Source: a virus
Lineage: Duplodnaviria > Caudoviricetes
IMG/VR virus record: IMGVR_UViG_3300044728_000197
Span: 1-63,358 of that record
DNA: 63,358 bases
Direction: 5' to 3' (one strand)
Below the pieces are notes generated by a model that searched no databases, was not told where the DNA came from, and saw nothing but the letters and a program-made list of their open reading frames with translations. The position numbers and the translations under genes were made by a program. Shown here piece after piece: positions 988 through 23,174 of this stretch (its first letter is position 1; each line of letters begins with the position of its first letter).

Positions 988-996
988 AGCCCGCGC

Positions 997-7431: not shown

Positions 7432-7526
7432 AGGCCCTCGGTCTCTGCTCTCCCTGCTGGCACAGGCTGCCCATCGAAGGGCTGAGAGCAGAAGCCGAGG
7501 GCCTCGTGCCTCCACCGTGCCAGCAG
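7432..7526 (-). ncRNA. candidate c4/CI-like cloverleaf antisense RNA with adjacent target site
   Basis: 21-bp near-perfect stem (7432-7452/7484-7504) enclosing two hairpins; 7454-7463 is perfectly complementary to 7517-7526; strand inferred from the operon. Confidence 0.55.
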
Positions 7527-7551
7527 CGGACAGATCGGAGCATAGCGCAGG

Positions 7552-7806: not shown

Positions 7807-7988
7807 GTCGGCGGCGCCGTGAGCCGCGAGCGCGGGAACCACTCGGGCCGGAGCTTGCGGAGCTCGTCGATGCGAGCCTCTGGCCAGCCGTTCTTCATCC
7901 AGCCCTGGACCGCCTGGCGCTTGAGCCCATAGGCCCGGGCGAGCGCGCTGACGGAGCCGGCCTTCTTCAATGCGGTTTCGATCTTCAT
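7803..7988 (-). CDS. cro: Cro/YdaS-like HTH regulator
   Basis: 61 aa, AGSVSALARAYGLKRQAVQGW...PEARI; first gene of the leftward operon. Confidence 0.85.
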   Translation of the reverse strand: MKIETALKKAGSVSALARAYGLKRQAVQGWMKNGWPEARIDELRKLRPEWFPRSRLTAPPT

Positions 7989-8130: not shown

Positions 8131-8481
8131 ATGACCAAGCAACGCACCCAGTTCGACGCGGCCCTCATCGCCGACCCGGCGCGCCGCGCTGCCCTCTTTG
8201 CCGCCGCTCGCAAGATCGATCCGCGCGTTTCCGGGTATACCGGCAGCGACAGCGACGGGAATCACCACATGCAAGTCTGGGGCGACGCGGTCGATGTTGT
8301 CGTCCCCGCCTCGGCGCTGACCGAGTCCCCCCGGTTCGACGTTTCCGACCTCGGCACCTTCTCGCTCGCCGAGATGCTGGAGACGAACTATCACGACGAG
8401 GACTTCTGCGAGTGGGCAAAGTCCTGCCCCATCGGCGCAGCCTACGACGGTGGAGGCGAGCCCTGCGTCCGCATCGCCTGA
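8131..8481 (+). CDS. hypothetical protein (first early gene)
   Basis: GGAG RBS then ATG at 8131; no HTH or S24 motif. Confidence 0.65.
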   Translation: MTKQRTQFDAALIADPARRAALFAAARKIDPRVSGYTGSDSDGNHHMQVWGDAVDVVVPASALTESPRFDVSDLGTFSLAEMLETNYHDEDFCEWAKSCPIGAAYDGGGEPCVRIA

Positions 8482-8531
8482 ATCGATCAACAACCATTTG
8501 GGTCGCTAGTCAGTGGCCCGGGAGAGCAGAG

Positions 8532-8699
8532 ATGAACGCAGCAGAGACGGTCGCCCTCTACGTCGGCGCCGACCCGAAGTACATCAAGGGCCGCATTGGT
8601 GCCGCGCTCATCCACATGAATGACGCGCGTCTAAGCGCCGAACAAGTCGCCTATTGGCAAGCCGTGGCCGATGGCTGCGCGCGTTTGCTCGCCGCGTGA
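8532..8699 (+). CDS. hypothetical protein
   Basis: GGAGAG RBS, MNAAETVAL. Confidence 0.5.
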   Translation: MNAAETVALYVGADPKYIKGRIGAALIHMNDARLSAEQVAYWQAVADGCARLLAA

Positions 8700-8706
8700 A
8701 CAGATC

Positions 8707-8964
8707 ATGAGCAGTCGATACGGCAAACGAGCCGCCGCGCATCAAGTCGCTGTCAACGCGATCCTGGCGCCCGCCCCGTTGGGGGGCATCAACCCGAACG
8801 AATCTGACCCGCTGGTGTTGTGGGCGGAGATTGCGCGCCTGCGCGCCGCCACGTGGGGGCCGCATGGCTATTCCTCATGGCAGGAAGCGGCCACAGCCGA
8901 GCGCATCCGTCGCGTCGAGGCAGAGCGCGCCCTCGCAGAAATGAAAAAAGGAGAGTCCGCATGA
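8707..8964 (+). CDS. hypothetical protein
   Basis: MSSRYGK...SWQEAATAERIRRV. Confidence 0.55.
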   Translation: MSSRYGKRAAAHQVAVNAILAPAPLGGINPNESDPLVLWAEIARLRAATWGPHGYSSWQEAATAERIRRVEAERALAEMKKGESA

Positions 8965-9128
8965 GCGCCACCCCCAACCCCCGCATCGGCCTAGATGTCC
9001 TCCTTGCCGCGTGAGCATTCCCGCACGCCCGCCCCTGCGTCCTACATCGCTAAGTGCGCTTGCCCTCAAGACCTGACTGCAAGCGCCGAATACCTTTCGT
9101 CCCCGCAACACTTGACGAGGAAACCCAG

Positions 9129-9413
9129 ATGAACCTTCCCTACTACCTGACCCCCGACGGCATCGCCAGCATCAAGGCAGCCTCGAAGGCCCTCGGCGAT
9201 GACCTCGAAGCCCGCCGCCTGCTGCGCGCAACAGCCCAGCGGCTCGACATCACCGATCGCCGGCACACTGTCGACAAGCGCGGCGCGGTGACGGTGATCT
9301 CCGGCGGCTGGACCGTCATCCGGCCGCGCTCGGATCTGGCGCGCTTCGACAGGCAGCCGGCGGACGTCACGGCGTTTATGCTCGACGACCAGATGCGCGG
9401 CGAGGCGCAATGA
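9129..9413 (+). CDS. hypothetical protein
   Basis: GAGGA RBS, MNLPYYLT. Confidence 0.6.
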   Translation: MNLPYYLTPDGIASIKAASKALGDDLEARRLLRATAQRLDITDRRHTVDKRGAVTVISGGWTVIRPRSDLARFDRQPADVTAFMLDDQMRGEAQ

Positions 9414-9682
9414 ACGCGCCCGAGCACATCGAAGAGCCGGAGGACCGCCCGGCAGACATCCGGCTCGCGCCGCGCTGGGTCTTCGACCTCGGCGTCTCCG
9501 ACAGCCTGCTCGTCCTGAAGGCCCTCGGCGGCCGGCTGGATCCGCGCGGCCGCAGCGGGAACGAGGTCGAGCAGGCGAAGGCGCTCGGCGACAAGCTGAC
9601 CGCGCTGCGAGCTCACCACGGCCGGCGCCTCCTCTCCGCGCTGCAGCGGGCCGAGGACAGGATGCACGAGGCGAAGGCATGA
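9410..9682 (+). CDS. hypothetical protein
   Basis: ATGA-coupled. Confidence 0.55.
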   Translation: MNAPEHIEEPEDRPADIRLAPRWVFDLGVSDSLLVLKALGGRLDPRGRSGNEVEQAKALGDKLTALRAHHGRRLLSALQRAEDRMHEAKA

Positions 9683-10065
9683 GCATCGGCAAACGCTTTC
9701 GCTTCGAGGGGACGCGCGCGTTCCTGGTCGAGAAGAGTCGCCTCCATTGTCTCGGGCCGCTGGGCGGGTTCAGCATGGCCAGCGATAAGGAGATCCGTCC
9801 GACCACAAAGCGATTTAACCCAAAGGAAATCGAGATCGGGCTGCCCGATCCCGGCCTGCTTGGATTCGACCTGCTCGCAGACCCGGAGCAGCCCGGGCAG
9901 GCCCTGCTCCGGCCGCGTCGTGCTGTGACTATCCTGCTCGTCTTCCCTGCTGGCGGCGGCATGGTTCAAATGCGCGGCAAAGTGCGCGCGGTCGACTACA
10001 TCGCGGAGCAGGGCCGGCTCTACTGCGCCCTGCTGCCCCTTGGCTCGCAGGAGGTTTTCCAATGA
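9679..10065 (+). CDS. hypothetical protein
   Basis: ATGA-coupled. Confidence 0.5.
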   Translation: MSIGKRFRFEGTRAFLVEKSRLHCLGPLGGFSMASDKEIRPTTKRFNPKEIEIGLPDPGLLGFDLLADPEQPGQALLRPRRAVTILLVFPAGGGMVQMRGKVRAVDYIAEQGRLYCALLPLGSQEVFQ

Positions 10066-10328
10066 AGGCCCTCGTCTTCATCCTTAGCGCCGCGACGCTA
10101 GCCCTCATCGGCTACCGCCTGCACGACATCGGCTTCCGCCTCGGCGACCTCGTCGCCTGGTGGATCCTCGCCGTCACGCTCGGCCTCGAGGCGCTGATCG
10201 TCATCGGCGGCGCGATCGAGTGGCGGAACGACCCGAGGGTCCGGAAGATCGCCGAGATGCGGATGCTCCTGGAGATGAACAAGGACGCCAAGCGGCGCGG
10301 CCGGCGTGTTCAGGAGCGGGCGATATGA
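10062..10328 (+). CDS. small two-TM membrane protein
   Basis: Two hydrophobic stretches and a basic tail. Confidence 0.6.
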   Translation: MKALVFILSAATLALIGYRLHDIGFRLGDLVAWWILAVTLGLEALIVIGGAIEWRNDPRVRKIAEMRMLLEMNKDAKRRGRRVQERAI

Positions 10329-10516
10329 AGGCGTCAGAGTTGCGTGATGCTCTCGCTGGACTCATGCAGAAGTACGGCGACTTGGACGTTTTTATCGGCA
10401 GTGACGACGGGATTGCGCCCGGCGACGTGGATGGCGTGCATGTGCGACCGCCATACGTAGATGAGTATCACAACGGACGCTATTCCTCGCCGGCGATGAT
10501 CGTCATCGAAGCATGA
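10325..10516 (+). CDS. hypothetical protein
   Basis: MKASELRDALAGLMQKYGDLDV; coupled. Confidence 0.6.
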   Translation: MKASELRDALAGLMQKYGDLDVFIGSDDGIAPGDVDGVHVRPPYVDEYHNGRYSSPAMIVIEA

Positions 10517-10761
10517 GCAGCCAGGAAGACGCCCGCCGCCTCGTCGCTGCCGAGACCGAGCGGCTGAAGGCAGCGCGGATCGCGGCCTACATCGCCGACC
10601 TCAAGCGCATGGATTGGGACTTCGAGTTCAGCGACGACCAGCGCGTCTGGTGGCGCGGAAACGATGCGCTCGCTGCGCTGAAGGCCAAGCAGTTCGACCT
10701 CGACCCGGACCTGCGGATCTGGAACGAGCACGCACCCGAGCAACACCGGAGGACAGAATGA
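10513..10761 (+). CDS. hypothetical protein
   Basis: DWDFEFSDDQRVWWRG motif; coupled. Confidence 0.65.
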   Translation: MSSQEDARRLVAAETERLKAARIAAYIADLKRMDWDFEFSDDQRVWWRGNDALAALKAKQFDLDPDLRIWNEHAPEQHRRTE

Positions 10762-11003
10762 CGACGAAGAAGCGAGCAGCGAAGAAGCCGGACCCGTTCA
10801 AAGCCCCGCGCGAGTTCGCGAAGGCAGTGAAGGCGAAGATCGCCGTCCCGAGCGATCCGTCCCGGCCCTATGTTCCGCTGACGACGACGGCGCCCGACAT
10901 CGCGGCGACCTGGGCGCGCTTCGGCTTCGTCCCGCCCTCGCAGAAGAAGGCGCAGGCCGAGGCAGAGGCAGCGAAGCCGCAGCAGCTGAGGCGGGCGAAA
11001 TGA
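10758..11003 (+). CDS. hypothetical protein
   Basis: GGAGG RBS; DIAATWARFGFVPPS. Confidence 0.6.
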   Translation: MTTKKRAAKKPDPFKAPREFAKAVKAKIAVPSDPSRPYVPLTTTAPDIAATWARFGFVPPSQKKAQAEAEAAKPQQLRRAK

Positions 11004-11234
11004 GCGCCTGGATCGATCGCCTCTGCTGGCTCGCCGTCTTCGCCCTGATCGTCTGGGCGACGGATTGGGCGGTGCGGCACTCGCCCTGGTGGCTGTCGTG
11101 AGCCAGCGCCAGTTCTTCTGCCTCTGCAGCGTGACGCTGCTTGCGCCATATATGGGGCGGCTCCCGGCGTTGATTCTGGGCGCGATCTGCGTCGTCCTGA
11201 TGCTCGTCTCTCCGATGGCCACGGAGCAGCAGCC

Positions 11235-11420
11235 ATGACGCCGCGCGTCCAAATTGGCGAGACGCTTTACTGGCAGATGACCGAGCCGACCATCGGCCAG
11301 CAGATCCAGACCCGCGACGGCCAAGCGATCATCAGAACGGCCGAGCAATCGCCTGAGGACAACGGCTGGCTCTTCACGGTCGAGCACTACACGCTCGACA
11401 ACCCGGCGGAGTCGCCATGA
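11235..11420 (+). CDS. hypothetical protein
   Basis: Coupled to the next gene. Confidence 0.5.
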   Translation: MTPRVQIGETLYWQMTEPTIGQQIQTRDGQAIIRTAEQSPEDNGWLFTVEHYTLDNPAESP

Positions 11421-11779
11421 AGCACAAGGTATCCGACCTCGAAGGGGCGCTGCTCGATGCAGCAGTGGCGAAGGCCGAAGGGCGCGAGTTGCTCGACGTA
11501 GCCGGGAAGCGCGCCGCAGCGACATTCGTAGGCTCCATCGCCTCGGTATTCCTAGAGTGGGCGCCGTCGACGAACTGGCAGCACGGCGGCCCGATCATCG
11601 ATCGCGAGCGGATCGGCACCCACTTCGACAAGTCGCGCGACTGCTGGTTCGCCATGCTGCCGCGAGTCCCTGGCGATTGGAGTCGGCCACTCGTAGACGC
11701 GCAGGGAGCGACTCCTCTCATCGCCGCGATGCGCGCCTACGCCGCCAGCAAGGTCGGCGGGGAGGTCGAGCTGCCATGA
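11417..11779 (+). CDS. DUF2591/NinX-family phage protein (copy 1)
   Basis: LDAAVAKAEG...PSTNWQHGGPII...GATPLIAAMRAYAASKVG. Confidence 0.8.
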   Translation: MKHKVSDLEGALLDAAVAKAEGRELLDVAGKRAAATFVGSIASVFLEWAPSTNWQHGGPIIDRERIGTHFDKSRDCWFAMLPRVPGDWSRPLVDAQGATPLIAAMRAYAASKVGGEVELP

Positions 11780-11867
11780 AACGCGAACCTCGCTCCCGCT
11801 ACATCTACACGGCGATCCTCGTCGCGCTGCCCTGGCTTCTGGGCGGGGCGCTCTGGATGATCTTCCG

Positions 11868-12254
11868 ATGAGCTTCCACTGCCCAGACCGCGGCCGGATC
11901 ATGACGGGAAGGTTCGCCTCGCGAGACGGCGACAACTTCGGCGCATTCTTCATCGCCTCGCCGGACCGTCGCGAACGCGCGCCGCTGAAGATCATCGCCA
12001 GCGACGGTCGCGACGACTCGGGCGAGATCGATATCGCCTGCCTGCCGCATCGTTGCCCGACTTGGGAGGAGATGTGCCACGTCAAAGGCATCTTCTGGGC
12101 TGCCGAGGACGCTGTCATGCAACTGCACCCGCCGGCGAGCGAGAACATATCGAACCACTCCTACTGTCTGCACCTATGGCGCCCCACGCAGCAGGCGATT
12201 CCGATGCCGCCTGCGTGGACGGTCGGCGACAAATCGCTAGGGACGCTGGTATGA
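11868..12254 (+). CDS. conserved phage protein
   Basis: CPTWEEMCHVKGIFW...QLHPP...NHSYCLHLWRP. Confidence 0.75.
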   Translation: MSFHCPDRGRIMTGRFASRDGDNFGAFFIASPDRRERAPLKIIASDGRDDSGEIDIACLPHRCPTWEEMCHVKGIFWAAEDAVMQLHPPASENISNHSYCLHLWRPTQQAIPMPPAWTVGDKSLGTLV

Positions 12255-12387
12255 GCGCGATCGTCGGCTTTGTCCTGATCGTTGTCGCCTGCATTGCCTC
12301 CGGCACCTATCTGGTCGCCACCGAGCACTACGGGTGGGCCTGGATCCCGTTCCTGCTCTGCGGGTGCTTCAGAGTGACGGACGCGAA

Positions 12388-12534
12388 ATGACCCGCGAGC
12401 TCGACGACCGCCAGGAGATGCTGCACCGCGTCGACACGCACAAGACGCGGCCGGCAGCGCTCGAGCCGAGCCGGATCGTGCGGCGGCTCTCCTGGTGGCA
12501 GCGGTTCCTGCGCGCGATCAGCGGGCGAAAGTAA
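12388..12534 (+). CDS. hypothetical protein
   Basis: Coupled short ORF MTRELDDR. Confidence 0.4.
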   Translation: MTRELDDRQEMLHRVDTHKTRPAALEPSRIVRRLSWWQRFLRAISGRK

Positions 12535-12580
12535 TCGGCGAAGCCGGCGGCCATCCAGCCGGCACAGAAGAAAGCACGAC

Positions 12581-13525
12581 ATGGGAAACGAAGTGACAGA
12601 GGTGCGAATCGGCAGCGAGGGCGGCCGCGATGGGCACCTGCAGCAGGGCGCTATCGCTCAGCGCGGCGAGACGTTCAACCTGACGCCGAGGAACCTGAAC
12701 GAGGCGATGCAGTTGGCCGAGCTGCTCGCATCTAGCGAGTACGTCCCGAAAGACTATCGCGGCAAGCCCGGGAACGTCTTGGTCGCCGTGCAGTGGGGCC
12801 ACGAGATCGGGCTGAAGCCGCTGCAAGCGATGCAGAACCTCTCCGTCATCAATGGCCGCCCGTCGCTCTGGGGCGACGCCATGATCGCGCTCGTTCGCAA
12901 CTCGCCGCTCTGCGAGTACATCGTCGAAACCGAGGACGCCGCAGGGACCGCCTTCTGCCAGGTCAAGCGCCGCGGCGAGGTCGAGCAGGTCCGGAAGTTC
13001 TCGGACGCCGATGCGAAGAAGGCCGACCTGCTCGGCAAGGCCGGCCCCTGGTCGACGAGTCCGAAGCGCATGAAGCAGATGCGGGCCCGCGCCTTCGCGC
13101 TCCGGGACGTCTTCGCCGACGTCCTCAAAGGGATGGCGATGGCCGAGGAGGTCATGGACCTGCCGGCCGAGGGCACCGCGCCGACTCCGCTCGATCAGCT
13201 CGCCGGCGCAGCGCCCGCGGTGCCGAAGGAACTGCTCGACGCCGCGCAGAAAGCCGCAGGCGATGGCCGCGACGCCTTCGCGGCCTGGTTCAAAGACAAG
13301 CAGAACGGCGGCCAGACGACGAAGGTCGAGCGCGAGCTGCTGAAGTTCAGCCTCGACGATCTGAAGGGGATCGCGCTGCGGGCCGACGAGAAGCGCGCGG
13401 AGGCCGCGGCTTCGACGACGGCGGCCGCCGCCTCCGGCGAGCAAGTGGTGATCAATCCGAACACGACGAGCAGCGCCAGCGAGGGGCCGACCTTCGGCGA
13501 CGACTCGCTCGGCGGGCAGGCGTGA
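12581..13525 (+). CDS. RecT/Red-beta-like single-strand annealing recombinase
   Basis: VPKDYRGKPGNVLVAVQWGHEIGLKPLQAMQNLSVINGRPSLWGD...PKRMKQMRARAFALRDVFADVL; next to an exonuclease. Confidence 0.85.
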   Translation: MGNEVTEVRIGSEGGRDGHLQQGAIAQRGETFNLTPRNLNEAMQLAELLASSEYVPKDYRGKPGNVLVAVQWGHEIGLKPLQAMQNLSVINGRPSLWGDAMIALVRNSPLCEYIVETEDAAGTAFCQVKRRGEVEQVRKFSDADAKKADLLGKAGPWSTSPKRMKQMRARAFALRDVFADVLKGMAMAEEVMDLPAEGTAPTPLDQLAGAAPAVPKELLDAAQKAAGDGRDAFAAWFKDKQNGGQTTKVERELLKFSLDDLKGIALRADEKRAEAAASTTAAAASGEQVVINPNTTSSASEGPTFGDDSLGGQA

Positions 13526-13947
13526 GGCGATACGTCATCGAGACGGACGGCCGCGGCAACTGCAACGTGCTCGACGAGTACGGGCGCGAGACGAAGCAGC
13601 TGACGCTCGGCGAGATGCTCGAGCAAATGGTCTCGCTCTGCCACCGCGGCCTCGGCGAGCCGCAGTTCGGGATGATGACGCCCGAGGCCTGGGACGCGCG
13701 CTGGGAGGCTTCGGCTGAGCGCGGGCGACTGAACGAATCGCCGCGCGATCTTTTCCTGCGGGCCATCGTGGCCGGCGTCGCTCGCTGGATTCCGAGCCCG
13801 GACGATCCGACGATCGGAAACATGGCGATCAAAGAAGGTGGGGGCCGCACGGAGCTGCGCTTGAACGTGCGCGTCGATGATCGCGGGCGCCCAGAGATCG
13901 ACGGGCACGTCGCCGCCTATCTGCGCTCCACGCTAGGCGAGTCGTGA
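13522..13947 (+). CDS. hypothetical protein
   Basis: GTG start overlapping the recombinase stop. Confidence 0.55.
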   Translation: MRRYVIETDGRGNCNVLDEYGRETKQLTLGEMLEQMVSLCHRGLGEPQFGMMTPEAWDARWEASAERGRLNESPRDLFLRAIVAGVARWIPSPDDPTIGNMAIKEGGGRTELRLNVRVDDRGRPEIDGHVAAYLRSTLGES

Positions 13948-14576
13948 AGATCATCGACGTCGAGCAGGGGACCGATGCCTGGATGCAGGCCCGCCTGGGC
14001 CTTGCCACGGCCTCCTGCTTCCAGGACATCATCGCCGAGTCGCGCTCGAAGACGCAGGAGAGCACGAGCCGGCGCAATCTGCGGCTGAAGCTGGTGCTCG
14101 AGCGGATCACGGGCCGGAAGGCGCAGAGCTTCGAGTCCTTCGCGACGAGGCAAGGAACAGAGCGGGAGCCTGCGGCGCGCCTCGCCTACGAGATCGAGAC
14201 GGGCGAGACGGTGACGCAGGTCGGCTTCGTTCGCCATGCGGTACTAGAGGCTGGCGCGAGCCCAGACGGATTGACCGTCGACGGCGGGCTCGAGATCAAG
14301 TCACCGCAGCCCGCCGCGCACCTGTTCGTCCTGCGCTCAGGCAAGGTCCCGGCCGAGTACGTCGCGCAGGTGCAGGGTGGGCTCTGGCTCTGCCAGCGCA
14401 AGGTCTGGAGCTTCTGCTCGTACAACCCGGAGTTCTCCGAGCGCTTGCAGTTGAAGATCATCCGCGTCCCGCGCGACCAGGCCTACATCGACCGCCTCGC
14501 CGCAGAGGTCACCGTCTTCCTCGACGAGGTTCGCGAGGAAGTGGCAGAGCTCGTCCGAATGGAGGCAGCAGCATGA
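13944..14576 (+). CDS. YqaJ-like (lambda exonuclease family) exonuclease
   Basis: EQGTDAWMQARLGLATAS...GASPDGL...LEIKSP...Y.AQVQG. Confidence 0.92.
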   Translation: MKIIDVEQGTDAWMQARLGLATASCFQDIIAESRSKTQESTSRRNLRLKLVLERITGRKAQSFESFATRQGTEREPAARLAYEIETGETVTQVGFVRHAVLEAGASPDGLTVDGGLEIKSPQPAAHLFVLRSGKVPAEYVAQVQGGLWLCQRKVWSFCSYNPEFSERLQLKIIRVPRDQAYIDRLAAEVTVFLDEVREEVAELVRMEAAA

Positions 14577-14824
14577 GCATGGAATACAAGCAATGGCGGG
14601 CGCTGAGCGAGGCGCTCGCTGTCGAACTCTGGGCGCAGGCCGGCGCAGACATGATGATCCCGGCAGCGCAAGGACGGGCAGCGGCCCTGCGCGCGAAAGC
14701 CGCCTCCGACGCGAATCAAGCCGATCACGGCGTAAAGCTGTGGCGCGGCTATCGGTACTCCGCCGGAGAGGTGCTGATCGCGCTGGAGCACCTGGGGTAT
14801 TCAGTCGAGGGAGCCAAACCATGA
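14573..14824 (+). CDS. hypothetical protein
   Basis: Coupled ORF. Confidence 0.5.
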   Translation: MSMEYKQWRALSEALAVELWAQAGADMMIPAAQGRAAALRAKAASDANQADHGVKLWRGYRYSAGEVLIALEHLGYSVEGAKP

Positions 14825-15069
14825 GCCAAGGCGGAAAACTCTCCCGCTACTTCAGGGAGCAGATGCTCGCCGGCAACAAGGACGCGCTCCGCGGCGCGGC
14901 GCTGGTGGTCCGGGTCGGATCGATCGTCAACGGAGTTGTCGAGTTGTCGCTCGTCGTGCAGGACAGCGAGGAGCGCGAGCTAGTGACCGCCGCGTCAGCC
15001 CGCCTGTATGAGGGCGATTCGTTCACGGTGACCGAGCTTGACATGGCGTTCGTCGTCACGGTCGCATGA
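14821..15069 (+). CDS. hypothetical protein
   Basis: Start re-called at MSQGGKL (ATGA overlap). Confidence 0.5.
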   Translation: MSQGGKLSRYFREQMLAGNKDALRGAALVVRVGSIVNGVVELSLVVQDSEERELVTAASARLYEGDSFTVTELDMAFVVTVA

Positions 15070-15404
15070 AGCACAAAACCGCCGACCTCTCCGGCCGCAG
15101 GCTCGACGCTGCGGTCGCGCTCGCGTGCAGGACCGCGCCGGTGAGCAGCCAGCCGGAGCGCAAAGCGGACTGGCGGCCGTCGACGGACTGGGCGCAGGGC
15201 GGGCCGATCATCGACGGTGCGCGGATCACGCTGAAGGCGAGCACCACGCCAGATGCTCAGCCCTGGTACGCCTGGACGCTCGCTCCCCTGCCTGGCTCGG
15301 AAGGCGGCTTTCAGACCTGGGGCCACTACGGGCCGACGCTGCTGATCGCAGCGATGCGGGCCTTCGTGGCGTCGAAGCTCGGCGCAGAGGTAGACCTGCC
15401 ATGA
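15066..15404 (+). CDS. DUF2591/NinX-family phage protein (copy 2)
   Basis: LDAAVALA...PSTDWAQGGPII...GPTLLIAAMRAFVASKLG. Confidence 0.8.
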   Translation: MKHKTADLSGRRLDAAVALACRTAPVSSQPERKADWRPSTDWAQGGPIIDGARITLKASTTPDAQPWYAWTLAPLPGSEGGFQTWGHYGPTLLIAAMRAFVASKLGAEVDLP

Positions 15405-15685
15405 TTTCGCGCCGCAATCTCCTCGCCGGCATCCTCGCATCAGGCATTGCGCCTGCGGGATTCTCCAGCGGCATTGGCCGCGTGCTCATGCCGGTGCGCC
15501 CGCTTGCGGATCGAACGCTCTTCACGTTTGGCGTGGACGTGCTACTGGACTTGCCAGCGGTCCCGTTCAGCGGCATCCGGAGAGTCTGGTCAAACGAGCA
15601 GCTTATCTGGATCGATGAGGAGCCCTCTAGCGCGATTAGTTTCCCGCCGCCGAAGGACTGGTCCGAGATCTTGCGGCTTCCATGA
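15401..15685 (+). CDS. small protein with a twin-arginine-like N-terminus
   Basis: MISRRNLLAGILASGIAPA. Confidence 0.55.
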   Translation: MISRRNLLAGILASGIAPAGFSSGIGRVLMPVRPLADRTLFTFGVDVLLDLPAVPFSGIRRVWSNEQLIWIDEEPSSAISFPPPKDWSEILRLP

Positions 15686-15872
15686 GTATGATTCCCGAAT
15701 ACACCCCAAGGGGGGCTAACCGCGCTACTGAGCGCGGGAGTGCAGGTCATGGTTCCGGTCGGCGTGCGAGCCAGCCGGACGAGGGTCAATCGGACACCGC
15801 GCTCGCATGCCTCGTCCCCCGCTTCGCGTCGTCGTCTATAGCGACCCGGCTCTCCCCCTTCGGGGGGCCGCG

Positions 15873-16385
15873 ATGAACGACGAGTTCAGCGCCGTATGCT
15901 TCTCGCCAGACGACGCCCACGCTGCGGCGACGCAGGCCTACGCCCACGCGAAGGCGATCATCGCCAACGGCCAGAACGCGCTGATCGAGTGCCGCCAAGC
16001 GCTCGAGCCGATCACGGTCAAGCAGCGGAAATTCCTCCACGGCGTCGTCCTGGTTCAGGTCAGCGAGCAGGTCGCGATCGAGGGGCACCGCTACACGGTC
16101 GCGATCTGGAAAGACTACTTCCGGAACCTCTTCCTGCCCGACGTCTGGAAGATGGTCGACGTCCCGCCGAAGTGGGACAAGACGCTCGGCCGCCTCGTAC
16201 AGCCGAAGCGCGAGCAGATGCCGAAGCGCATCCGCCAGAGCACCGAGGAATTGGGCGTGCGCGCCTATTCCGAATTCACCGAGAAGATCATCGACTACGC
16301 GACCGTCGAGTGGGGCGTTTCGTTCCACTTCACGAACGAAGACCAGGCGCTGCGGCGCACCAAACCGAAAGGGCAGCCAGCATGA
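15873..16385 (+). CDS. NinB-like recombination accessory protein
   Basis: TVKQRKFLHG...WKDYFRNLFL...RQSTEELGVRAYSEFTEKIIDYA...GVSF. Confidence 0.7.
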   Translation: MNDEFSAVCFSPDDAHAAATQAYAHAKAIIANGQNALIECRQALEPITVKQRKFLHGVVLVQVSEQVAIEGHRYTVAIWKDYFRNLFLPDVWKMVDVPPKWDKTLGRLVQPKREQMPKRIRQSTEELGVRAYSEFTEKIIDYATVEWGVSFHFTNEDQALRRTKPKGQPA

Positions 16386-16735
16386 TCCTCTCCTACATCG
16401 CCGGCGCGATCGCGCTGACCTCCCTCGCCGTCCTGGGGCTGAGCCTGCTCCAGTTGCATCGAACGAAGCGGTATCTGCAGAAGGTGCACGCCTCCGTCGA
16501 GGCCGCGAACGACGCGGCGCCCGCTTGGGACCGGGGGGCGCTCTTTCCAGCGGTCTGGAATGTCATCGAAGCCAGCGACCGGCGCCTGCTGCTCTGCGAT
16601 CACCACCTGTCGATCCGCGACCTCGGCGACCCGGGCTGGATGCTGAAGGGCTGCCCGCTCGAGCCTGCGCCCGCAGGGTCTCAATGCGTGCACTGCCTCG
16701 CCGATTTCTACACCGGAGCCCCCGCCTGCCAATGA
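16382..16735 (+). CDS. membrane-anchored hypothetical protein
   Basis: N-terminal TM segment; C-terminal CVHC. Confidence 0.5.
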   Translation: MILSYIAGAIALTSLAVLGLSLLQLHRTKRYLQKVHASVEAANDAAPAWDRGALFPAVWNVIEASDRRLLLCDHHLSIRDLGDPGWMLKGCPLEPAPAGSQCVHCLADFYTGAPACQ

Positions 16736-17862
16736 GTACCGACATCACCATCAGCCTCGACGCCGTCCGCAGCGAGGTCCTCAAGTTCGACAACATCGAG
16801 GCCGGGATGGCTGACCTCGAGGCGCGCTACCCGAAGGACGTCGTCTGCGAAGTCGCGACGACCGCGGGAATGGATCAAGCAGTCGAGGCCCGGCGCGCCT
16901 GGCGCGATCCCCGCATCGCTGTCGAGAAGGCCCGGAAGGCAGCGAAGGCGCCCGTGCTGGAACTCGGCCGGCGGATCGACTCCTTCGCCGCCTCGCTGGA
17001 GGAGCGCCTGCGCCTCGGCGAGGACGCCTACGACTCGCAGATCAAGGCCGAGGAAGCGCGGAAGGAGGCGATCCGGCAGCAGCGGCTCCAGGAGGAGGCC
17101 GCCCGCATCGCCGCGATCCGCCGCCGCATCGTCGAGGTCTTCTCCGTCCCTCCGTCGGCCCCGGGCGTGCGAATCAGCGCGGCGATGCTGCGCGAGATCC
17201 GGGGCCACCTGGAGAACGAGCCGGTCGACGACTCCTTCGGCGACCTGAAGATCGAGGCGCAGGAGACGAAGTGCGCCATGCTCGAGATGCTGGGAGTGAA
17301 GATCGGCGAGCAGGAGGCGCTCGAGTCAGCCCAGGCCGAGATCGACCGGCAGCGCGCCGCCTTCGCCGAGGAGCAGCGGGTCGAGACCGCACGCCGGGCC
17401 GCAGAACGGGAGGCGGAGAACCGCCGCCTGTCGGCTGTCGCAGAGGAGGCGCTCGCCAATGTGGCCAGGGAGGCGGAGAGGCTCGCCGCCCAGCGCGAAG
17501 AAAACGCCCGCCAGCAGGCCCAGATCGACGCCCAGCGCGCCGAACTGGACCGGCGCGAGGCAGAGGCCGCCGAAGCGGCGCGCGTGCGCCAGGCGGCCGC
17601 AGATGCCGAAGAGAACGCCCGGGTCGACGCCGAGCAGCGGGAGAGGGCTCGGCAGCGGATGGCCGAGGATGCCGCGCTGGCGCGGCTGCATGCCGCGGCA
17701 GAGCCGATGTGGAAGCTGCTGGACGACTGGCGATCCTTTGACCTGGAGGCGGTGAACGGGCCGTGCAAGGTCCTGCTGAACGCCCTGCGCGAGCGCCGCG
17801 ACCGCATCCTCTCCGATCTCCGCGTATCCGACGCACAAGGCGAGGAGCGGGCGAATGGCTGA
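16732..17862 (+). CDS. long coiled-coil phage protein
   Basis: VEKARKAAKAPVLELGRRIDS and an E/R/A-rich heptad region. Confidence 0.75.
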   Translation: MSTDITISLDAVRSEVLKFDNIEAGMADLEARYPKDVVCEVATTAGMDQAVEARRAWRDPRIAVEKARKAAKAPVLELGRRIDSFAASLEERLRLGEDAYDSQIKAEEARKEAIRQQRLQEEAARIAAIRRRIVEVFSVPPSAPGVRISAAMLREIRGHLENEPVDDSFGDLKIEAQETKCAMLEMLGVKIGEQEALESAQAEIDRQRAAFAEEQRVETARRAAEREAENRRLSAVAEEALANVAREAERLAAQREENARQQAQIDAQRAELDRREAEAAEAARVRQAAADAEENARVDAEQRERARQRMAEDAALARLHAAAEPMWKLLDDWRSFDLEAVNGPCKVLLNALRERRDRILSDLRVSDAQGEERANG

Positions 17863-18172
17863 CTACGTTCCGATGGCCGGCCCGCTGCCGGGCGAGCGCT
17901 ACATGCCAAGCAACGGGACCGAGGGCATGTGCTTCCAGGAAGCTTGGTGCTGCGAGTGCGCCAAGGACAATGAGATGAACGGCTCCTGCCACGAAGAAGG
18001 CCGCGACGCCACCGACGAGGACTACTGCCCGATCCTGAACGCCTCCTATCGCGACGAGGCCGAGGAATGGCGCGAACTGCCCGACGGCCGGACCGTCTGC
18101 ATCGCCTTCCAGAAGCGCGCGCCCAGCAACGACGCGCTGCCGCGCTGCGAGCACACGCAAGAATTGTTCTGA
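17855..18172 (+). CDS. Cys-rich conserved phage protein
   Basis: YMPSNGTEGMCF...WCCEC...CPIL...VCIAF. Confidence 0.7.
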   Translation: MADYVPMAGPLPGERYMPSNGTEGMCFQEAWCCECAKDNEMNGSCHEEGRDATDEDYCPILNASYRDEAEEWRELPDGRTVCIAFQKRAPSNDALPRCEHTQELF

Positions 18173-18205
18173 CGCCCTCTCCCCCACGCCCCGAAAGGCC
18201 AAACG

Positions 18206-18778
18206 ATGAAGCAATTCGCCCTCCTCGACCCGACGCCTGCCCTCCTCGTCAACGTCAACCCGCGGAGCGAGAAGCACGGCAAGGCCAAGGTCCCCGCCGT
18301 CGACCTCCGCCTCGAGATAACCGCGCCGAACACGCTGCTCGACCAGCTGAAGCCCGAGCTGCGGCACGCCCTCTATACGGCAGAGCACGAGGACGGGCCG
18401 GAGCAGCCGCTGCTGGACGGCGTCGACGCTGTCTCCCCGACCCCGCTCCTGCGCGTCGAGGGCCTGCAGCCGATCCGTCTGGACGACGAGCTGACCGGCT
18501 ACACGGTCGTCTTCGACATCGGCACGGGCCGGAAGGACTCGATCGTCGAGCTCGACGGTTGCAAGGTGAAGTCCTTCCAGGTCGAGGCGCTGCAGGGCGG
18601 CTCGGTGAAGATCCTGCTCACCGCCCAGGCCAGCAACCTGAAGGAGCGGGACTTCGGCAAGCTCTGCATGCTGATCGACTGCGAGGTCTCGCTCTGCCTG
18701 CTGCCGCCGGACGAGCCGCAGCAGACCCTGGTGGTGGCCCTGGTCGACGGCGCGCCGGCCGATGTGATGCAGCACTGA
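18206..18778 (+). CDS. conserved phage protein
   Basis: NVNPRSEKHG..KVPAVDL; clean ORF with RBS. Confidence 0.7.
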   Translation: MKQFALLDPTPALLVNVNPRSEKHGKAKVPAVDLRLEITAPNTLLDQLKPELRHALYTAEHEDGPEQPLLDGVDAVSPTPLLRVEGLQPIRLDDELTGYTVVFDIGTGRKDSIVELDGCKVKSFQVEALQGGSVKILLTAQASNLKERDFGKLCMLIDCEVSLCLLPPDEPQQTLVVALVDGAPADVMQH

Positions 18779-18779
18779 G

Positions 18780-19655
18780 ATGGCCGACTCGCTTGAGCAG
18801 ATCGGCCGCGACTACGCGATCGACTACGCGATCGACTTCGGGCGCGCGGCAGAAGCGCTGCACGAGGAAGTCTCCCGGCTCGACGCGGACATGCTGGCGC
18901 TGGCCGAAAACCTCGCGAATCACCGAGAAGAGGACCACATGAACGACCCCACCCCCAGGACAGCCGAAGAGGCGCTGACGGACGAGCAGGAGCGCAAAGC
19001 CTTCTACGCGGCTTACGACGAATGCGAGAGGCTGACGGGCCACAAGCCCGCCGCCTATGACGTGTGGATGCTGGCTCGCGGCAAGATGACAACGGACGGC
19101 CGCGCCACCCTATCCCGTACACCGCCTGCCCCCTCGCCCGAGCCGGTGGCGTGGCGGTATCGGCACAAGAGCGTCAAAGGTAAGTGGGGCGTTACCGATC
19201 TGCCGCCCGTGCAGCCGAATGACCGCTTCTACGAATTCGTGCCCATGTACGCCGCTCCCCCTCTAGACGAGGCGCCAGCCGATCCTGATGTTCATCCGAC
19301 CGAGCGCGCCGGCAAGAGTCCCGAGGCGGCTGATGGGGCGGTCCATGACGCCATCATGCGGGCGCTCGATGAGGCGGGCATCTATCAAAGCGTTCTGCGT
19401 GGCATGTGTGTCGAAGTCGGCCTAGAGAGATTCCGCGACTCCATCGAGCGCGCTGGCGAAGCGGTGCAGCGGCCGGCTGATGGAGACCGAGACTATCGCG
19501 CGCTCTACGAGGAATTGCTCTATGCGGTCGGGAACAAGTATCCCGGCGAATCGCGGCATCAGACGGCGCTCCGCTACATCGAACGTGCAGAGCAATCGTC
19601 AGCCGCGTCAGGGAACACCGCCACTGCTCGGTCAGATGAAGGAGAGCCCTCATGA
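18780..19655 (+). CDS. mosaic hypothetical protein
   Basis: EPVAWRY...PMYAAPP and ELLYAVGNKYPGESRHQTALRYI modules. Confidence 0.6.
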   Translation: MADSLEQIGRDYAIDYAIDFGRAAEALHEEVSRLDADMLALAENLANHREEDHMNDPTPRTAEEALTDEQERKAFYAAYDECERLTGHKPAAYDVWMLARGKMTTDGRATLSRTPPAPSPEPVAWRYRHKSVKGKWGVTDLPPVQPNDRFYEFVPMYAAPPLDEAPADPDVHPTERAGKSPEAADGAVHDAIMRALDEAGIYQSVLRGMCVEVGLERFRDSIERAGEAVQRPADGDRDYRALYEELLYAVGNKYPGESRHQTALRYIERAEQSSAASGNTATARSDEGEPS

Positions 19656-19963
19656 CCCCCATCCCCACAGGGAGCGCAGACCCGCGCCTTCAGCACCTTG
19701 TTTACGCATGGCTCGGTCAGCACCGGGACTCGATGCCTATGGCCGCCGTGGAAGCGTTGCAAAGCATCCTTGGCCCGCTGGACACAGGGAGCGGAGCAGC
19801 ACCAGATGCGCTACGGGAGGCGGCGGAAGTTGCTGCCACTTGGGCGGAAGGTCTGCGCGACGACAAGGGCCATCCGGGCGGCTTGCGGGTCGCGGCATCG
19901 GTCGTCGGCAAACGCCTTCGCGCCGCCCTCGCACCCACCGAGCAGGCCACCCCCGGAGACTGA
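19652..19963 (+). CDS. hypothetical protein
   Basis: Coupled ORF. Confidence 0.5.
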   Translation: MTPIPTGSADPRLQHLVYAWLGQHRDSMPMAAVEALQSILGPLDTGSGAAPDALREAAEVAATWAEGLRDDKGHPGGLRVAASVVGKRLRAALAPTEQATPGD

Positions 19964-19964
19964 C

Positions 19965-20234
19965 ATGCGAATCAACGTCTACAGCCAGGAATTGACCGAT
20001 GAGGTCGTGCGCGTCTCGAAGGTGTCGAACACCGGCCGGGCCTACATCGCCGCGCAGTTGATCCTGCACTCGTCGCCCATGCTGCACCACCCGCCCGAAG
20101 ACGACGACCGCTCGGCCGTGACGTTCTGGATCCCCTCATCCGAGACGCGCCGGGAAGCGATGGCACAAGCGTTCGAGCGAATCGCCGCCATCTTCCGGGC
20201 CCCCACCGAGCAGGCCACAGGGGAGAAGAAATGA
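19965..20234 (+). CDS. conserved phage protein
   Basis: GGAG RBS; MRINVYSQELT...DDDRSAVTFW. Confidence 0.65.
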   Translation: MRINVYSQELTDEVVRVSKVSNTGRAYIAAQLILHSSPMLHHPPEDDDRSAVTFWIPSSETRREAMAQAFERIAAIFRAPTEQATGEKK

Positions 20235-20304
20235 GCACGGCCTGCAATCATCCCGACTGCGGCCGCGCGAAGGGCGAGCGCGTTTGTCTCGCCCTCGGGT
20301 GCTG

Positions 20305-20433
20305 CTACCAGTCGATCTGGCCGTCGGTCGTCTGCGACCAGTCGATCTGGCCGGCGCCGCCGGTCGCTTGCGCGAGGTCGGCGTCGGACAGCTCGGCCAC
20401 CGCAGGCGCTTCGGATTCGATGACGTCTTCCAT
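20305..20433 (-). CDS. 42-aa double-glycine-leader precursor peptide
   Basis: AGGAGA RBS 7 nt before the ATG; MEDVIESEAPAVAELSDADLAQATGG|AGQIDWSQTTDGQIDW. Confidence 0.7.
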   Translation of the reverse strand: MEDVIESEAPAVAELSDADLAQATGGAGQIDWSQTTDGQIDW

Positions 20434-20803
20434 CCCGTTGTCTCCTAGCAGCGCCGGATCGGCGCCCGGGGATTCTGGAAGCCGCCCCGATCGCCTGGGC
20501 AACCGCTCATCGTGAAGTGCTGCCGGGAATGCCCTCGCCCGAGGACAAGCGGGTCGCCTGCGTGCAAGGCTGATCCGATGATTCGCGCATGTCGAAGCCG
20601 CTCCCCCGCACATGGCCGCCGGTGCCGGATCCCGGCTACCCACGCGGCTGCGTCTGCGAGACCTGCCGGCTCCTGCGCCTCTGGCGGGCTGGCAGGCTCC
20701 GGTCTGGGTTCGGCGCCCCTGCTGCCGCCCGTCCGGCGCCCTGACTCTGCCGTGATCTATCCCCTCGGCGTTCCGGGCCCTCGGCGCTGACAATCGGCGG
20801 GCC

Positions 20804-21070
20804 ATGAACTGCCCGCAATGCCAGGCCGCGACGGCGGTGATCGAGAAGCGAGACGGCAACCGGCGCCGGCGCGAGTGCACGGACCCCTCCTGCGGACTGC
20901 GCTTCAACACCTTCGAGATATTGGCGACCGAGCTGCACTCCCTGCAGGATGACCGGCGCCTCCTCGAGGACCTCGGCCGCCGCCTGGGCGCGGTGATGGA
21001 GGGCCTCGCTAAGCGCCCCGACGGCGCAGACACGCAACCCGCAAGCCTTGATCTGGAGCTGCCGACATGA
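20804..21070 (+). CDS. Zn-ribbon transcriptional regulator (NrdR N-terminal/Ogr-like)
   Basis: MNCPQC...RRRRECTDPSCGLRFNTFE. Confidence 0.75.
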   Translation: MNCPQCQAATAVIEKRDGNRRRRECTDPSCGLRFNTFEILATELHSLQDDRRLLEDLGRRLGAVMEGLAKRPDGADTQPASLDLELPT

Positions 21071-21588
21071 CCAGCACCGAAGCCCTCGCCTACTGCCAGG
21101 AGCTTGGCTGGCTCGCGAAGGCCATGCTCTCCGGCTGGCAGGGCGCCTGCGGGGTCCTGCTGATCTGCTGCGTCTGGTTCGGCTGCCGCTACTACTTCGG
21201 CGTCGGCATCCGCATGCCGCGGCTGCGCGCGACCGCCAAGCGGCTCGCCCAGGAGCGAGACGCGGCGAAGGCGGAGAACGCGCGTCTGCTTGGCGAGTGC
21301 GCGATGCTGCGCGGCAAGATGGAGACGCTCGGCCTTGAGGCGCAGAAGGAGATCAACGCCGCTGACGCCAAGGCTGCGCGCGAGCGGGCGATCCGCAAGC
21401 GGACCGAGGAGCGCCTGACGGAGCAGAACGCGCTACTGGCGGACGCGAACGATCGCGCGACGTCGCTCGAGCAGCTGCTCCTCGCCGTCAACGACCAGCA
21501 GCAGCGGCCGGCGCCAGGCAGCGCTGAATCGTGGGTGCCTCTGGCCGTCGTCGGCGGGACGGAGGCCGGCGGGCTGTCTGCGAAGTAG
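21067..21588 (+). CDS. membrane-anchored coiled-coil protein
   Basis: One hydrophobic segment followed by heptad repeats. Confidence 0.6.
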   Translation: MTSTEALAYCQELGWLAKAMLSGWQGACGVLLICCVWFGCRYYFGVGIRMPRLRATAKRLAQERDAAKAENARLLGECAMLRGKMETLGLEAQKEINAADAKAARERAIRKRTEERLTEQNALLADANDRATSLEQLLLAVNDQQQRPAPGSAESWVPLAVVGGTEAGGLSAK

Positions 21589-22220: not shown

Positions 22221-22414
22221 GAGATGACCTCCGGCTTCGATGTCGCCTTCTGGGCGACATTTGCTGCGCCGTAGATCGCCATCGCGGCGACGGCGAGCTG
22301 CTTCCAGTCGGAGGCGTCGATCAGGTTCATCCAGCGCAGCCAGGTCGCCAGCAGCAGGACGAGCAGGACGAGGAGGAGCTTGCGCGATGTCCAGCGGCTC
22401 GAGGTCTCGCTCAT
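22217..22414 (-). CDS. holin-like two-TM protein
   Basis: WTSRKLLLVLL...IYGAANVAQK; within the lysis block. Confidence 0.6.
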   Translation of the reverse strand: MSETSSRWTSRKLLLVLLVLLLATWLRWMNLIDASDWKQLAVAAMAIYGAANVAQKATSKPEVIS

Positions 22415-22968
22415 GGCGCGGAGACCACGCCGGCGCGATCCCTCAGCGACTCGACGAACCGCTCGCAGGCCTCGCCGCGGATGCCGCGCTTGTCGGCGAG
22501 CTCAGCCAGGAGGCTCGCTCGAGCGTCAAGTTTTCCGAGCACGTCGGCAAACATTCCGAGGGCGTCAGGGGCTGACGCGCCACCGCCGGCAGCGGCGGGA
22601 TTGCGGCAGGAACGACGACCGGCGGCGGCAAGGGCTTGGGCGCGCTCGCGCAGGCCTGCAGCAGAAGCGACAGCAGCAGAGGCGGCAGATTCAGCCGCGG
22701 CGAGTTTTTCGGTCGTGACATTGGTGATCTCCTCTGAGCGCTTCGCCCAGGCCTGCTCCTTCGCCCGCTCGCGCTGCTCGGCCTCGAGGGCACGCTGCGA
22801 GAGGTCGGCTTCCTTCGCTGCCCAGACGGCTCGCTCCTGTGCGAGGTCGCCCTCGGTTTCGTGAAGGCGCCAAGTCTGCACGCCGATCGCGGAGACCGCC
22901 AGCGCAGCTGCGCCCCCGATCACCCAGAGGCCGGTCGTGCCGCCGCCGAGGATGCCGAGGATGCTCAT
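22411..22968 (-). CDS. Rz-like inner-membrane spanin (DUF2514-like)
   Basis: N-terminal TM segment, coiled coil, C-terminal GEACER. Confidence 0.8.
   Translation of the reverse strand: MSILGILGGGTTGLWVIGGAAALAVSAIGVQTWRLHETEGDLAQERAVWAAKEADLSQRALEAEQRERAKEQAWAKRSEEITNVTTEKLAAAESAASAAVASAAGLRERAQALAAAGRRSCRNPAAAGGGASAPDALGMFADVLGKLDARASLLAELADKRGIRGEACERFVESLRDRAGVVSAP
22443..22721 (-). CDS. Rz1-like outer-membrane lipoprotein spanin, nested in Rz
   Basis: Lipobox LLLQA|C, Pro-rich, embedded out of frame within Rz. Confidence 0.8.
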   Translation of the reverse strand: MSRPKNSPRLNLPPLLLSLLLQACASAPKPLPPPVVVPAAIPPLPAVARQPLTPSECLPTCSENLTLERASWLSSPTSAASAARPASGSSSR

Positions 22969-23174
22969 GCGCCCCACCCTGAAAGGACGCCCCAGGCCGA
23001 GGGCGCGCGCAGCGGCGCGCGTGGAACCAGCAGGACGCGCCCGTCCTCGCCCTCGTAGAGTATCTGGCTCCGGCCATCGAGCGGACGAAAGCCCGGCCCG
23101 GGCGGCAGCGGGACGTTGTCGGTGAGGTCGATGTCGACGAAGCGCACGGGCGGCGGGGGTAACGCGCGAGCCAT
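22965..23174 (-). CDS. hypothetical protein
   Basis: Coupled to the Rz start. Confidence 0.4.
   Translation of the reverse strand: MARALPPPPVRFVDIDLTDNVPLPPGPGFRPLDGRSQILYEGEDGRVLLVPRAPLRAPSAWGVLSGWGA

Follow-up and report, generated by a model that had tools for sequence, protein, structure and literature searches.

Peptide messages carried by phages are known from phages of Gram-positive bacteria, which send them by way of Sec-type propeptides and TPR receptors. Here we describe a 42-codon open reading frame (ORF) on the minus strand (20305-20433) of the phage record IMGVR_UViG_3300044728_000197 from IMG/VR, the whole of which, 63,358 bases, is the window analyzed here. Its predicted product resembles a different class of exported peptide, the double-glycine (GG) leader precursors of peptidase-containing ABC transporters (PCATs) of the ComAB, BlpAB, CvaB, PCAT1 and LahT type. 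According to the sections of PMC7018657 drawn on here, such precursors carry GG at the cut site and 3-4 hydrophobic residues at positions -4, -7, -12 and -15, and in the portion of PMC12219008 consulted, class II microcins are the best-known GG-leader peptides that Gram-negative bacteria export through PCATs. A phage-borne GG-leader peptide of a Gram-negative host is undescribed in the literature searched, which included parts of PMC7018657, PMC12219008 and 10.1101/2021.11.05.467447.

The ORF probably encodes a small acidic peptide, and we put at roughly 40% the chance that this peptide is an exported GG-leader precursor, cut after G26 by a PCAT of the host to release AGQIDWSQTTDGQIDW. As in PCAT substrates, the putative leader is 26 residues long and ends in GG (G25-G26, then A27), the cargo behind it is short, and there is no Sec-type signal. 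Gly-Ala or Gly-Ser may take the place of GG at -2/-1 in such leaders. The leader positions are occupied by V(-15), L(-12), D(-8), L(-7), A(-4), G(-2) and G(-1), giving three bulky hydrophobics and one Ala at the four hydrophobic positions; the hydrophobic residues at -15, -12 and -7, the acidic residue at -8 and the small one at -4 are also shared with PCAT substrates as the same sections of PMC7018657 present them. Unlike those substrates, the phage ORF has no PCAT, adaptor, immunity or receptor gene near it or anywhere in the record. The translation contains 10 D/E residues, no K, R or H, no Cys and no hydrophobic signal segment, and with neither a basic residue nor a hydrophobic segment, export of the peptide by Sec or Tat is unlikely.

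In the route that we propose, a 42-aa acidic precursor would be made in the cytoplasm, and its residues 1-26 would form an amphipathic helix, the double-glycine leader, whose hydrophobic residues at -15, -12, -7 and -4 would dock on a host C39 domain. The host PCAT would cut after G26, and the 16-residue core would leave the cell through an HlyD-type adaptor and an outer-membrane channel. As the phage has no exporter genes, any export would use host machinery, so that the phage would supply the precursor alone; with no modification enzyme at hand, the product would be an unmodified peptide.

Comparison with control ORFs supports the view that the N-terminal 26 residues resemble a leader cleaved by C39/PCAT enzymes. 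Residues 10-36 matched, below the model cut-offs, the NCBIfam leader models for mersacidin/lichenicidin, ATP-grasp targets and plantaricin C (E 0.026-0.067). In a random sample of 149 other ORFs from the 201 small ones (30-65 aa) of the window, none matched a leader or bacteriocin model at E <= 0.1; five of them matched some other family. A regular expression for the leader, which includes [ED] at -8 and GG and was written with the peptide already known, had this ORF as its only match among the window's 126,716 six-frame residues, and matched nowhere in the 946,362 residues of 81 other loci (1.07 million residues in total). A Pfam search with the 42-aa peptide returned no match. Its nearest ESM Atlas neighbors are unnamed clusters (0.90), with a type-A lantibiotic cluster at rank 6 (0.89), a comparison prone to chance matches and useful as a lead only. 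Like precursors of class II lanthipeptides and graspetides (TIGR03898, NF000539, TIGR04497), the peptide has a leader ending in an ELSxxxL...GG-like motif; unlike them, it is matched only below threshold and comes with no modifying enzyme among the classes searched. Identity as a lanthipeptide was rejected, as a peptide without Cys can form no lanthionine, and the initial label of a peptide resembling those synthesized by ribosomes and modified after translation (RiPP-like) finds no support, given the same lack of Cys and of any modifying enzyme in the three classes covered.

The preliminary description of this DNA had pointed to GG-leader, Trp-terminated peptides beside PCAT or regulator genes as the relatives to look for, and peptides of this general kind do occur in Burkholderiales, where the best look-alikes of the phage peptide have cores with an aromatic residue (Trp in some members) last or next to last. 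The search set comprised 401 genomes of this order, which holds the Variovorax genome mentioned below. The best match of the phage peptide (E 0.0115) lay in one genome, G315, inside an array of six ORFs of 44-46 aa; the other 11 best places were noise, in large or featureless frames. Members of the array end in ...L(S/N)ELELALVGGG, followed by GGDIHWG, CGDVIWG, SGDTVWA and similar cores. The array, in the locus G315:C1:3452000-3470000, is convergent with a gene for a 707-aa exporter with Peptidase_C39, ABC_membrane and ABC_tran domains, which is preceded by an HlyD-type adaptor and followed by two TPR proteins with an HD_5 domain. The same cassette is found in G351 (G351:C4:737000-756000), with eight identical precursor copies and the core IGDVIFL, and in G151 (G151:C36:32000-44735), with one copy and the core MGNVDIG. 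It is thus present in all three loci examined, and consists of an HlyD adaptor, a C39-ABC exporter, 1-9 tandem precursor genes and one or two cytoplasmic TPR-HD-GYP proteins; HD...HD...GYP motifs are present in all five TPR/HD proteins examined.

The precursors are 42-46 aa long, with cores of 6-7 residues that read xGD(V/I)x(F/W/L)x; the core has 7 residues in 144 of 183 sequences, with the pattern xG[DE][VI]x[FLIVW][GA]. At E <= 0.001, the precursor family is found in 84 of the 143 genomes of the bacterial family of G315 (the unpublished genome G499 is counted among them), in runs of as many as nine consecutive copies, and in 371 protein clusters. All of the 120 clusters listed are unnamed or called "hypothetical protein," with no Pfam domain. 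Five members compared with NCBIfam matched no leader or RiPP family (one chance match, E 0.079, to an ATP synthase model), four compared with Pfam matched nothing, and a single precursor peptide found nothing in the word-index protein search. A cassette of PCAT, short peptide and TPR-HD-GYP protein is undescribed in the literature searched, as far as the parts of those sources go. It is a candidate peptide-signaling system of Gram-negative bacteria tied to cyclic-di-GMP, and merits study irrespective of any relation to the phage peptide.

In 20 further PCAT loci, from other genomes, a regular expression for GG-leader ORFs gave 18 matches, corresponding to about 14 distinct peptides in 8 loci. 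One of these loci (G191:C20, approximately 9163-9351 of the locus, minus strand) encodes a single copy of a precursor with the 7-residue core DVVQMGG, and another (G047:C1, approximately 4506-5398 of the locus, plus strand) holds about six tandem copies with the cores EAVGTTY/EAVGSTY. Very short PCAT cargos may be widespread beyond the precursor family.

The relation of the phage peptide to this family is one of resemblance in architecture and local sequence, not of membership. The two share a similar length, an acidic helical leader and L-[SN]-[DE]-x-x-L-A before the GG, and the core AGQIDW can be laid over xGD(V/I)x(F/W) with Gly at position 2, Ile/Val at 4 and an aromatic residue at 6; G2, I4 and W6 of the phage core fit the family pattern. 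They differ in that the phage has a single gene with a two-unit core, with neither array nor cassette. In the hhalign alignment, residues 9-32 of the peptide were paired with columns 22-45 of the family profile (probability 71%, 24 columns, 42% identity), spanning leader, GG and the first GQIDW unit. MAFFT identities over ~32 columns were 36-45% for the six G315 members and 30-33% for those of G351 and G151, and the phage peptide is without the family's first 12 leader residues. Its core has D where members mostly have I or V, and the peptide is not among the 120 listed of the 371 clusters.

Profile hidden Markov models of the family, which align residues 2-31 of the phage peptide, scored it at 18.6 bits when built from 8 sequences, 17.9 from 76 and 17.1 from 187; the score barely falls as the family diversifies, although a chance match to one subfamily should fade. 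Full shuffles of the peptide never reached the family score (0 of 3000 and 0 of 5000), and shuffles that kept M1 and the seven generic leader positions did so in 0 of 3000 and 1 of 5000 cases. Shuffling the core only left a mean of 9.3 bits and shuffling the leader only a mean of 5.1 bits; as either shuffle lowers the score, leader and core both contribute, at ~9 bits each. When six-frame segments of the window and 175 other loci were scored (25,115 segments, 1.77 million residues), the frame of the phage peptide ranked first; scored as a 375-aa open frame it reached 13.2-13.6 bits (E ~0.1), and the next segment 7.0-8.3 bits. Against the family profile, the top-scoring segments of the 20 other PCAT loci reached 16.1, 9.5, 9.3, 7.0 and 6.5 bits, with at most 3.4 for all others. 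Other true GG peptides thus score lower, which places the phage peptide closer to the family than ordinary GG peptides. Corrected roughly for the ~270 C39 loci of the search set, the shuffle frequency gives a chance level of a few percent, which is no proof.

C39 domains occur in 175 of the 401 Burkholderiales genomes, making an exporter in the host plausible; no small GG ORFs were found near C39 loci of the terminase-related genomes in the short loci examined. To model docking, structures of residues 1-175 of the G315 exporter (its C39 domain) with the phage peptide were predicted in three runs, with three controls. The predicted complex scored 0.41 (runs 0.41, 0.43 and 0.41), which the tool rates as weak support, and the best control 0.00; contacts agreed between runs to at least 84%, with a partner predicted local distance difference test (pLDDT) score of at least 52. 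In calibration, 51 of 78 solved complexes passed the mark, as did 2 of 108 mismatched pairs; the range at or below 0.60 held only 5 of the 78 solved complexes and all 4 passing mismatches (of 180). As PCAT-substrate complexes have already been solved, the pass may reflect only likeness to known GG leaders.

If released, the core would most likely act as an extracellular unmodified peptide that resembles, and possibly competes with, the hexa- and heptapeptides of the host. This role is proposed because the look-alikes are xGD(V/I)x(F/W/L)x precursors and the core consists of two xGQIDW units of similar shape. By analogy, a two-headed analogue (AGQIDW...GQIDW) might mimic or jam an undescribed Burkholderiales peptide signal sensed by TPR-HD-GYP proteins and through them linked to cyclic-di-GMP turnover, or carry phage-to-phage messages over the same channel; we think it quite improbable that either is so. 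The idea of signaling or jamming, already raised in the preliminary description, now has a possible concrete counterpart in nature. If true, a GG-leader precursor supplied alone by a phage of a Gram-negative host and exported by the host's PCAT would be a different route to peptide messaging; no earlier case of interference with peptide signals, or of arbitrium-like messaging, would precede it among phages of Gram-negative bacteria. If the phage ORF is silent or its product stays inside the cell, the finding is an ordinary orphan small ORF.

The analogy with arbitrium that accompanied this idea did not hold up, as there is no TPR receptor gene in the record and no Sec-type signal on the peptide. 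What the phage peptide shares with arbitrium (AimP/AimR) and RRNPP systems is that it is short, encoded by a phage and potentially active outside the cell; in addition, short peptides and TPR proteins go together in the Burkholderiales cassette, as in RRNPP systems (abstract of PMC10075063). On the side of the differences, the neighbors of the ORF are a phrog_20753 protein and a zinc-ribbon protein in place of a receptor, and the host is probably Gram-negative. The leader is of the GG type and not the Sec-type propeptide signal of arbitrium; no link to a lysis-lysogeny switch is to be seen, and the record has no integrase.

Several observations weigh against an exported GG-leader precursor, beginning with the lack of relatives. 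A phmmer search of 1,835,955,588 representative proteins and a word-index protein search each returned the query itself only. Pattern scans of viral contigs (47 matches), genome contigs (600) and metagenome contigs (595) yielded no confirmed homologue, and the best foreign match of tblastn against 82 loci (80 of them viral and sharing the left neighbor gene) had an E value of 0.36. No homologue that conserves the leader was therefore found, an outcome that the preliminary description had named as telling against its proposal, and with no homologue at all, conservation or selection cannot back the ORF. The GG leader that it had read in the peptide fits the rule and goes unmatched among the control ORFs, but the curated models reach it only below threshold (13.7-14.5 bits, with cut-offs of 23.5-32), and position -4 is an Ala.

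The link to the Burkholderiales family has weaknesses of its own. Matches of the phage peptide at E <= 1 occurred in 85 genomes, which is the noise level, and since the family was found with the phage peptide as query, the reverse scores are not independent. Across the 401 genomes, the family profile picked up four chance matches with 18.9-20.2 bits. The phage peptide, at 17.1-18.6 bits, stays far below database-level significance and below the 52-79 bits of the 120 listed members. Of 84 distinct 7-residue cores, 76 carry D or E at position 3, the most conserved residue of the family core, and the phage core has Q there; its 16 residues compare with 6-7 in the family. The family was not found in IMG/VR by its patterns, and the 143 genomes of the bacterial family in which the precursors occur gave no relative of the phage terminase at E <= 1e-20, an empty result of little weight.

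The record itself offers no machinery, as had been said at the outset: Peptidase_C39 (PF03412), ABC_tran (PF00005), HD_5 and TPR_12 were absent from it at E <= 1, and so were LANC_like, ATP-grasp_3 and Radical_SAM, the only modification-enzyme classes searched. In the DNA, the 25-nt direct repeat that encodes the two core units overruns the stop codon, which points to a recent duplication of DNA and not to selection on the peptide. A region scan for sigma-70-like promoters found no site, and a terminator scan of 19800-21200 found none either, with no T-run after the hairpin that follows the ORF and no canonical terminator.

The same points leave room for an acidic product that stays in the cell and binds a host or phage protein, for instance as an acidic decoy with a D-W carboxy terminus, its GG likeness being accidental, produced by an amphipathic helix rich in Ala, Asp and Leu with Gly-Gly behind it. 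Binding of this kind is how many small early or moron proteins act. This explanation uses the same evidence for a gene (codon usage and Shine-Dalgarno sequence) and suits a peptide with ten acidic and no basic residues, an orphan like many small phage proteins, in a record with no exporter, receptor or immunity gene; the sub-threshold leader matches and the family score short of database-level significance favor it as well. It does not account for the near-total failure of leader-keeping shuffles to reach the family score, for the absence of matches to RiPP-leader models among the 149 control ORFs, or for a family match that extends beyond the GG into the core, and no family, fold or partner favors a particular intracellular role. 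On balance we regard it as somewhat unlikely.

Whether exported or not, the peptide presupposes a gene, and codon usage makes it likely that the ORF is one. A codon model was trained on 17 long ORFs of typical composition (24,111 nt). Under it, the minus-strand ORF has a log-likelihood ratio of +23.1 bits, or 0.55 per codon, compared with 0.65 +/- 0.10 per codon (minimum 0.40, n = 17) for the training genes. The other five frames of the same interval score from -2.7 to -67.6 bits. Windows of 42 codons in the true frame of the 17 training genes have a mean of 27.9 bits (standard deviation 12.1), and wrong-frame windows reach 23.1 bits in 0, 0, 0, 0.19% and 1.4% of 7,323 per frame. The coding score is negative before the ATG, positive within the ORF and negative after the stop, and the ORF is the sole positive-scoring one in the 570-nt gap 20235-20803. 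Its guanine-plus-cytosine (GC) content per codon position is 0.71/0.48/0.88. It lies inside a 242-aa open frame from a GTG at 21033, and the coding signal starts only at the ATG; a longer protein from an upstream start (the frame is open to 21033) was rejected, as the coding score there is strongly negative. The AGGAGA and its 7-nt spacing to the ATG are as originally reported; a strict Shine-Dalgarno sequence stands upstream of 91 of the 1332 ATGs (6.8%) of the whole window. The ORF had been called "hidden," yet its 42-aa product is already a called protein in a public collection of 5.8 billion clusters, and the ESM Atlas holds a letter-for-letter copy. It is most likely a real, lineage-restricted small gene, and looks like a moron-like insert with its own ribosome-binding site and a hairpin after the stop, opposing the plus-strand early block. 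The features of the locus are given in Table 1; translation and repeat and hairpin searches reproduced the ORF, the 17-nt exact repeat with its two GQIDW units and the 8-bp hairpin as first described.

Table 1. Features of the ORF and its surroundings (positions in the window)
Feature	Position	Strand	Details
42-codon ORF with TAG stop	20305..20433	-	translation MEDVIESEAPAVAELSDADLAQATGGAGQIDWSQTTDGQIDW
Putative double-glycine leader, residues 1-26	20356..20433	-	MEDVIESEAPAVAELSDADLAQATGG; GG codons 20356-20361
Putative core, residues 27-42	20308..20355	-	AGQIDWSQTTDGQIDW; GQIDW units at 20338-20352 and 20308-20322
Shine-Dalgarno AGGAGA	20441..20446	-	plus strand reads tctcct; spacer 20434-20440, ATG 20431-20433
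25-nt direct repeat, two copies	20302-20326, 20332-20356		92% identity, period 30 nt; exact 17-nt part 20307-20323 / 20337-20353
GC-rich 8-bp hairpin	20271..20295		arms 20271-20278 and 20288-20295, 100% complementary; 9-nt loop
370-nt stretch without credible ORF	20434..20803		between the ORF and the divergent Zn-ribbon gene; all ORFs score negative
Left neighbor, 89-aa protein of phrog_20753 (unknown function)	19965..20234	+	PHROG match
Divergent neighbor, 88-aa NrdR-like zinc-ribbon protein	20804..21070	+	PF22811, E 9.4e-9

The opposite view, that this is a chance open frame in DNA of 68% GC and no gene, would explain the locus at the level of DNA: two copies of the 13-mer CCAGTCGATCTGG, 30 bp apart, as sites for a regulator (e.g., the zinc-ribbon protein) or as a slippage duplication, and the hairpin as the end of the upstream plus-strand gene. 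The repeat does continue 5 nt past the ORF stop codon (TGG-TAG-CAG versus TGG-TCG-CAG), which implies that DNA was duplicated here and that the second GQIDW unit arose in this way together with the stop. Each repeat copy holds the near-palindrome, with its dyad symmetry; with up to 2 mismatches, the 13-mer has 13 matches in the window, against 3.2 expected. A third, degenerate copy (2 mismatches) is present at 20486-20498 on the minus strand, 148 nt from the exact copies, in the ORF-free stretch upstream of the peptide gene. There is also no homologue and no conservation to set against chance, no promoter in the scan, and only +1.6 bits from the first 14 codons of the ORF; 3 of 65 spurious ATG-ORFs inside the training genes reach 23.1 bits as well, which may in part be due to training ORFs extended too far. 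Against a chance frame stand the three-base periodicity and the codon usage typical of this phage's genes, bounded by ATG and stop, the strong Shine-Dalgarno sequence at an ideal distance and the position as the only positive-scoring ORF of the gap. Exact copies of the 13-mer in the window are limited to these two, and one more coincidence would be needed to explain the likeness to leader and family. We consider this view unlikely.

The hairpin has a folding energy of -19.4 kcal/mol as minus-strand RNA and -23.0 kcal/mol as plus-strand RNA. It lies between the ORF and the convergent phrog_20753 gene and could therefore serve either or both; it is possibly a two-way transcription stop without a T-run. 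A promoter of the ORF would have to be in the 370-nt stretch upstream of it, and Rfam models found no match in the ORF region.

Were the peptide exported, it could also be antibacterial, a class II microcin-like or bacteriocin peptide that leaves through a PCAT and gives a lysogen a competitive edge in place of carrying a signal. The leader evidence would be shared, and the portion of PMC12219008 consulted knows PCAT-exported GG peptides of Gram-negative bacteria mostly as microcins. The core of 16 residues is strongly acidic, with no Cys and no hydrophobic stretch, which speaks against such a role; no immunity gene candidate adjoins the ORF, the other ORFs of the gap scoring negative, and the look-alikes with cores of 6-7 residues adjoin TPR-HD-GYP signaling proteins, not immunity genes. 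We think an antibacterial peptide very unlikely.

That the plus-strand ORF 20231-20515 (94 aa) is the true gene and the minus-strand ORF its shadow is barely credible, even though it starts with an ATG that shares bases with the upstream gene's stop codon (ATGA), with GGAG in GGGGAGAAG just upstream, and the two frames share third codon positions, so that GC at these positions cannot separate them: its log-likelihood ratio is -15.6 bits against +23.1, leaving the coding signal with the minus strand as the preliminary description supposed, its GC at codon positions 1 and 2 is inverted relative to real genes, it has no Pfam match beyond noise and no relative in the 82 loci (80 viral), and the public collection lists the minus-strand ORF, the only one looked up, as a called protein.

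The neighborhood of the ORF is a mosaic. The phrog_20753 gene has relatives in 130 viral loci and is the only gene of the neighborhood common to other phages; the DNA next to it, 20235-20803, is common to none of the 80 of these 130 loci that were compared, and relatives of seven neighboring ORFs are encoded in none of the loci compared. Scans with the 190-aa, 88-aa and 173-aa neighbors gave no match, no match and one partial match, respectively. Sequencing runs containing the ORF stretch were two DNA runs of one soil-metagenome sample, from which the phage may come, with no RNA run listed.

The record is linear, with ~68% GC and a CheckV completeness of 81%. A rough gene map and PHROG scans divide it into a left block on the minus strand (107-7988), an early block on the plus strand (8131-21588) with RecT-like, RecE-like exonuclease and NinB-like genes, and a late block on the minus strand (21694-60292) with spanin, tail, portal, major head and large terminase genes. 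With no tyrosine integrase in the record, the phage can at most be called possibly temperate. A betaproteobacterium is the probable host, judging from sequence relationships of the terminase: it is 69% identical to two contigs of metagenome-assembled genomes (MAGs) labeled Gammaproteobacteria and Pseudomonadota, 63% to a Variovorax ginsengisoli contig, 58% to a Rhodocyclaceae MAG and 55% to Burkholderiales MAGs, and also 61% to an alphaproteobacterium. A full-length match to the Betaproteobacteria-1 RNA (RF02932; 69 bits, gathering score 49.4) lies at 7291-7414 on the minus strand, inside the left block, so that the phage carries this small RNA motif, a hint to its host.

Three other features of the record were observed. 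A 61-aa ORF at 7806-7988 (minus strand) matches the NCBIfam "carph-isopro" domain NF046037 (E 3.4e-7; 30.3 bits, cut-off 38). A 528-aa protein at 61725-63311 (minus strand) joins an N-terminal ParB-like nuclease/partition domain to a C-terminal DNA methyltransferase, with matches to phrog_498 (E 5.8e-117) and phrog_15396 (E 2.1e-42). Two Rz-like spanin matches flank the meeting point of the early and late blocks, a weak one at 21067-21588 on the plus strand (E 2.9e-4) and a strong one at 22411-22977 on the minus strand (E 6.1e-27).

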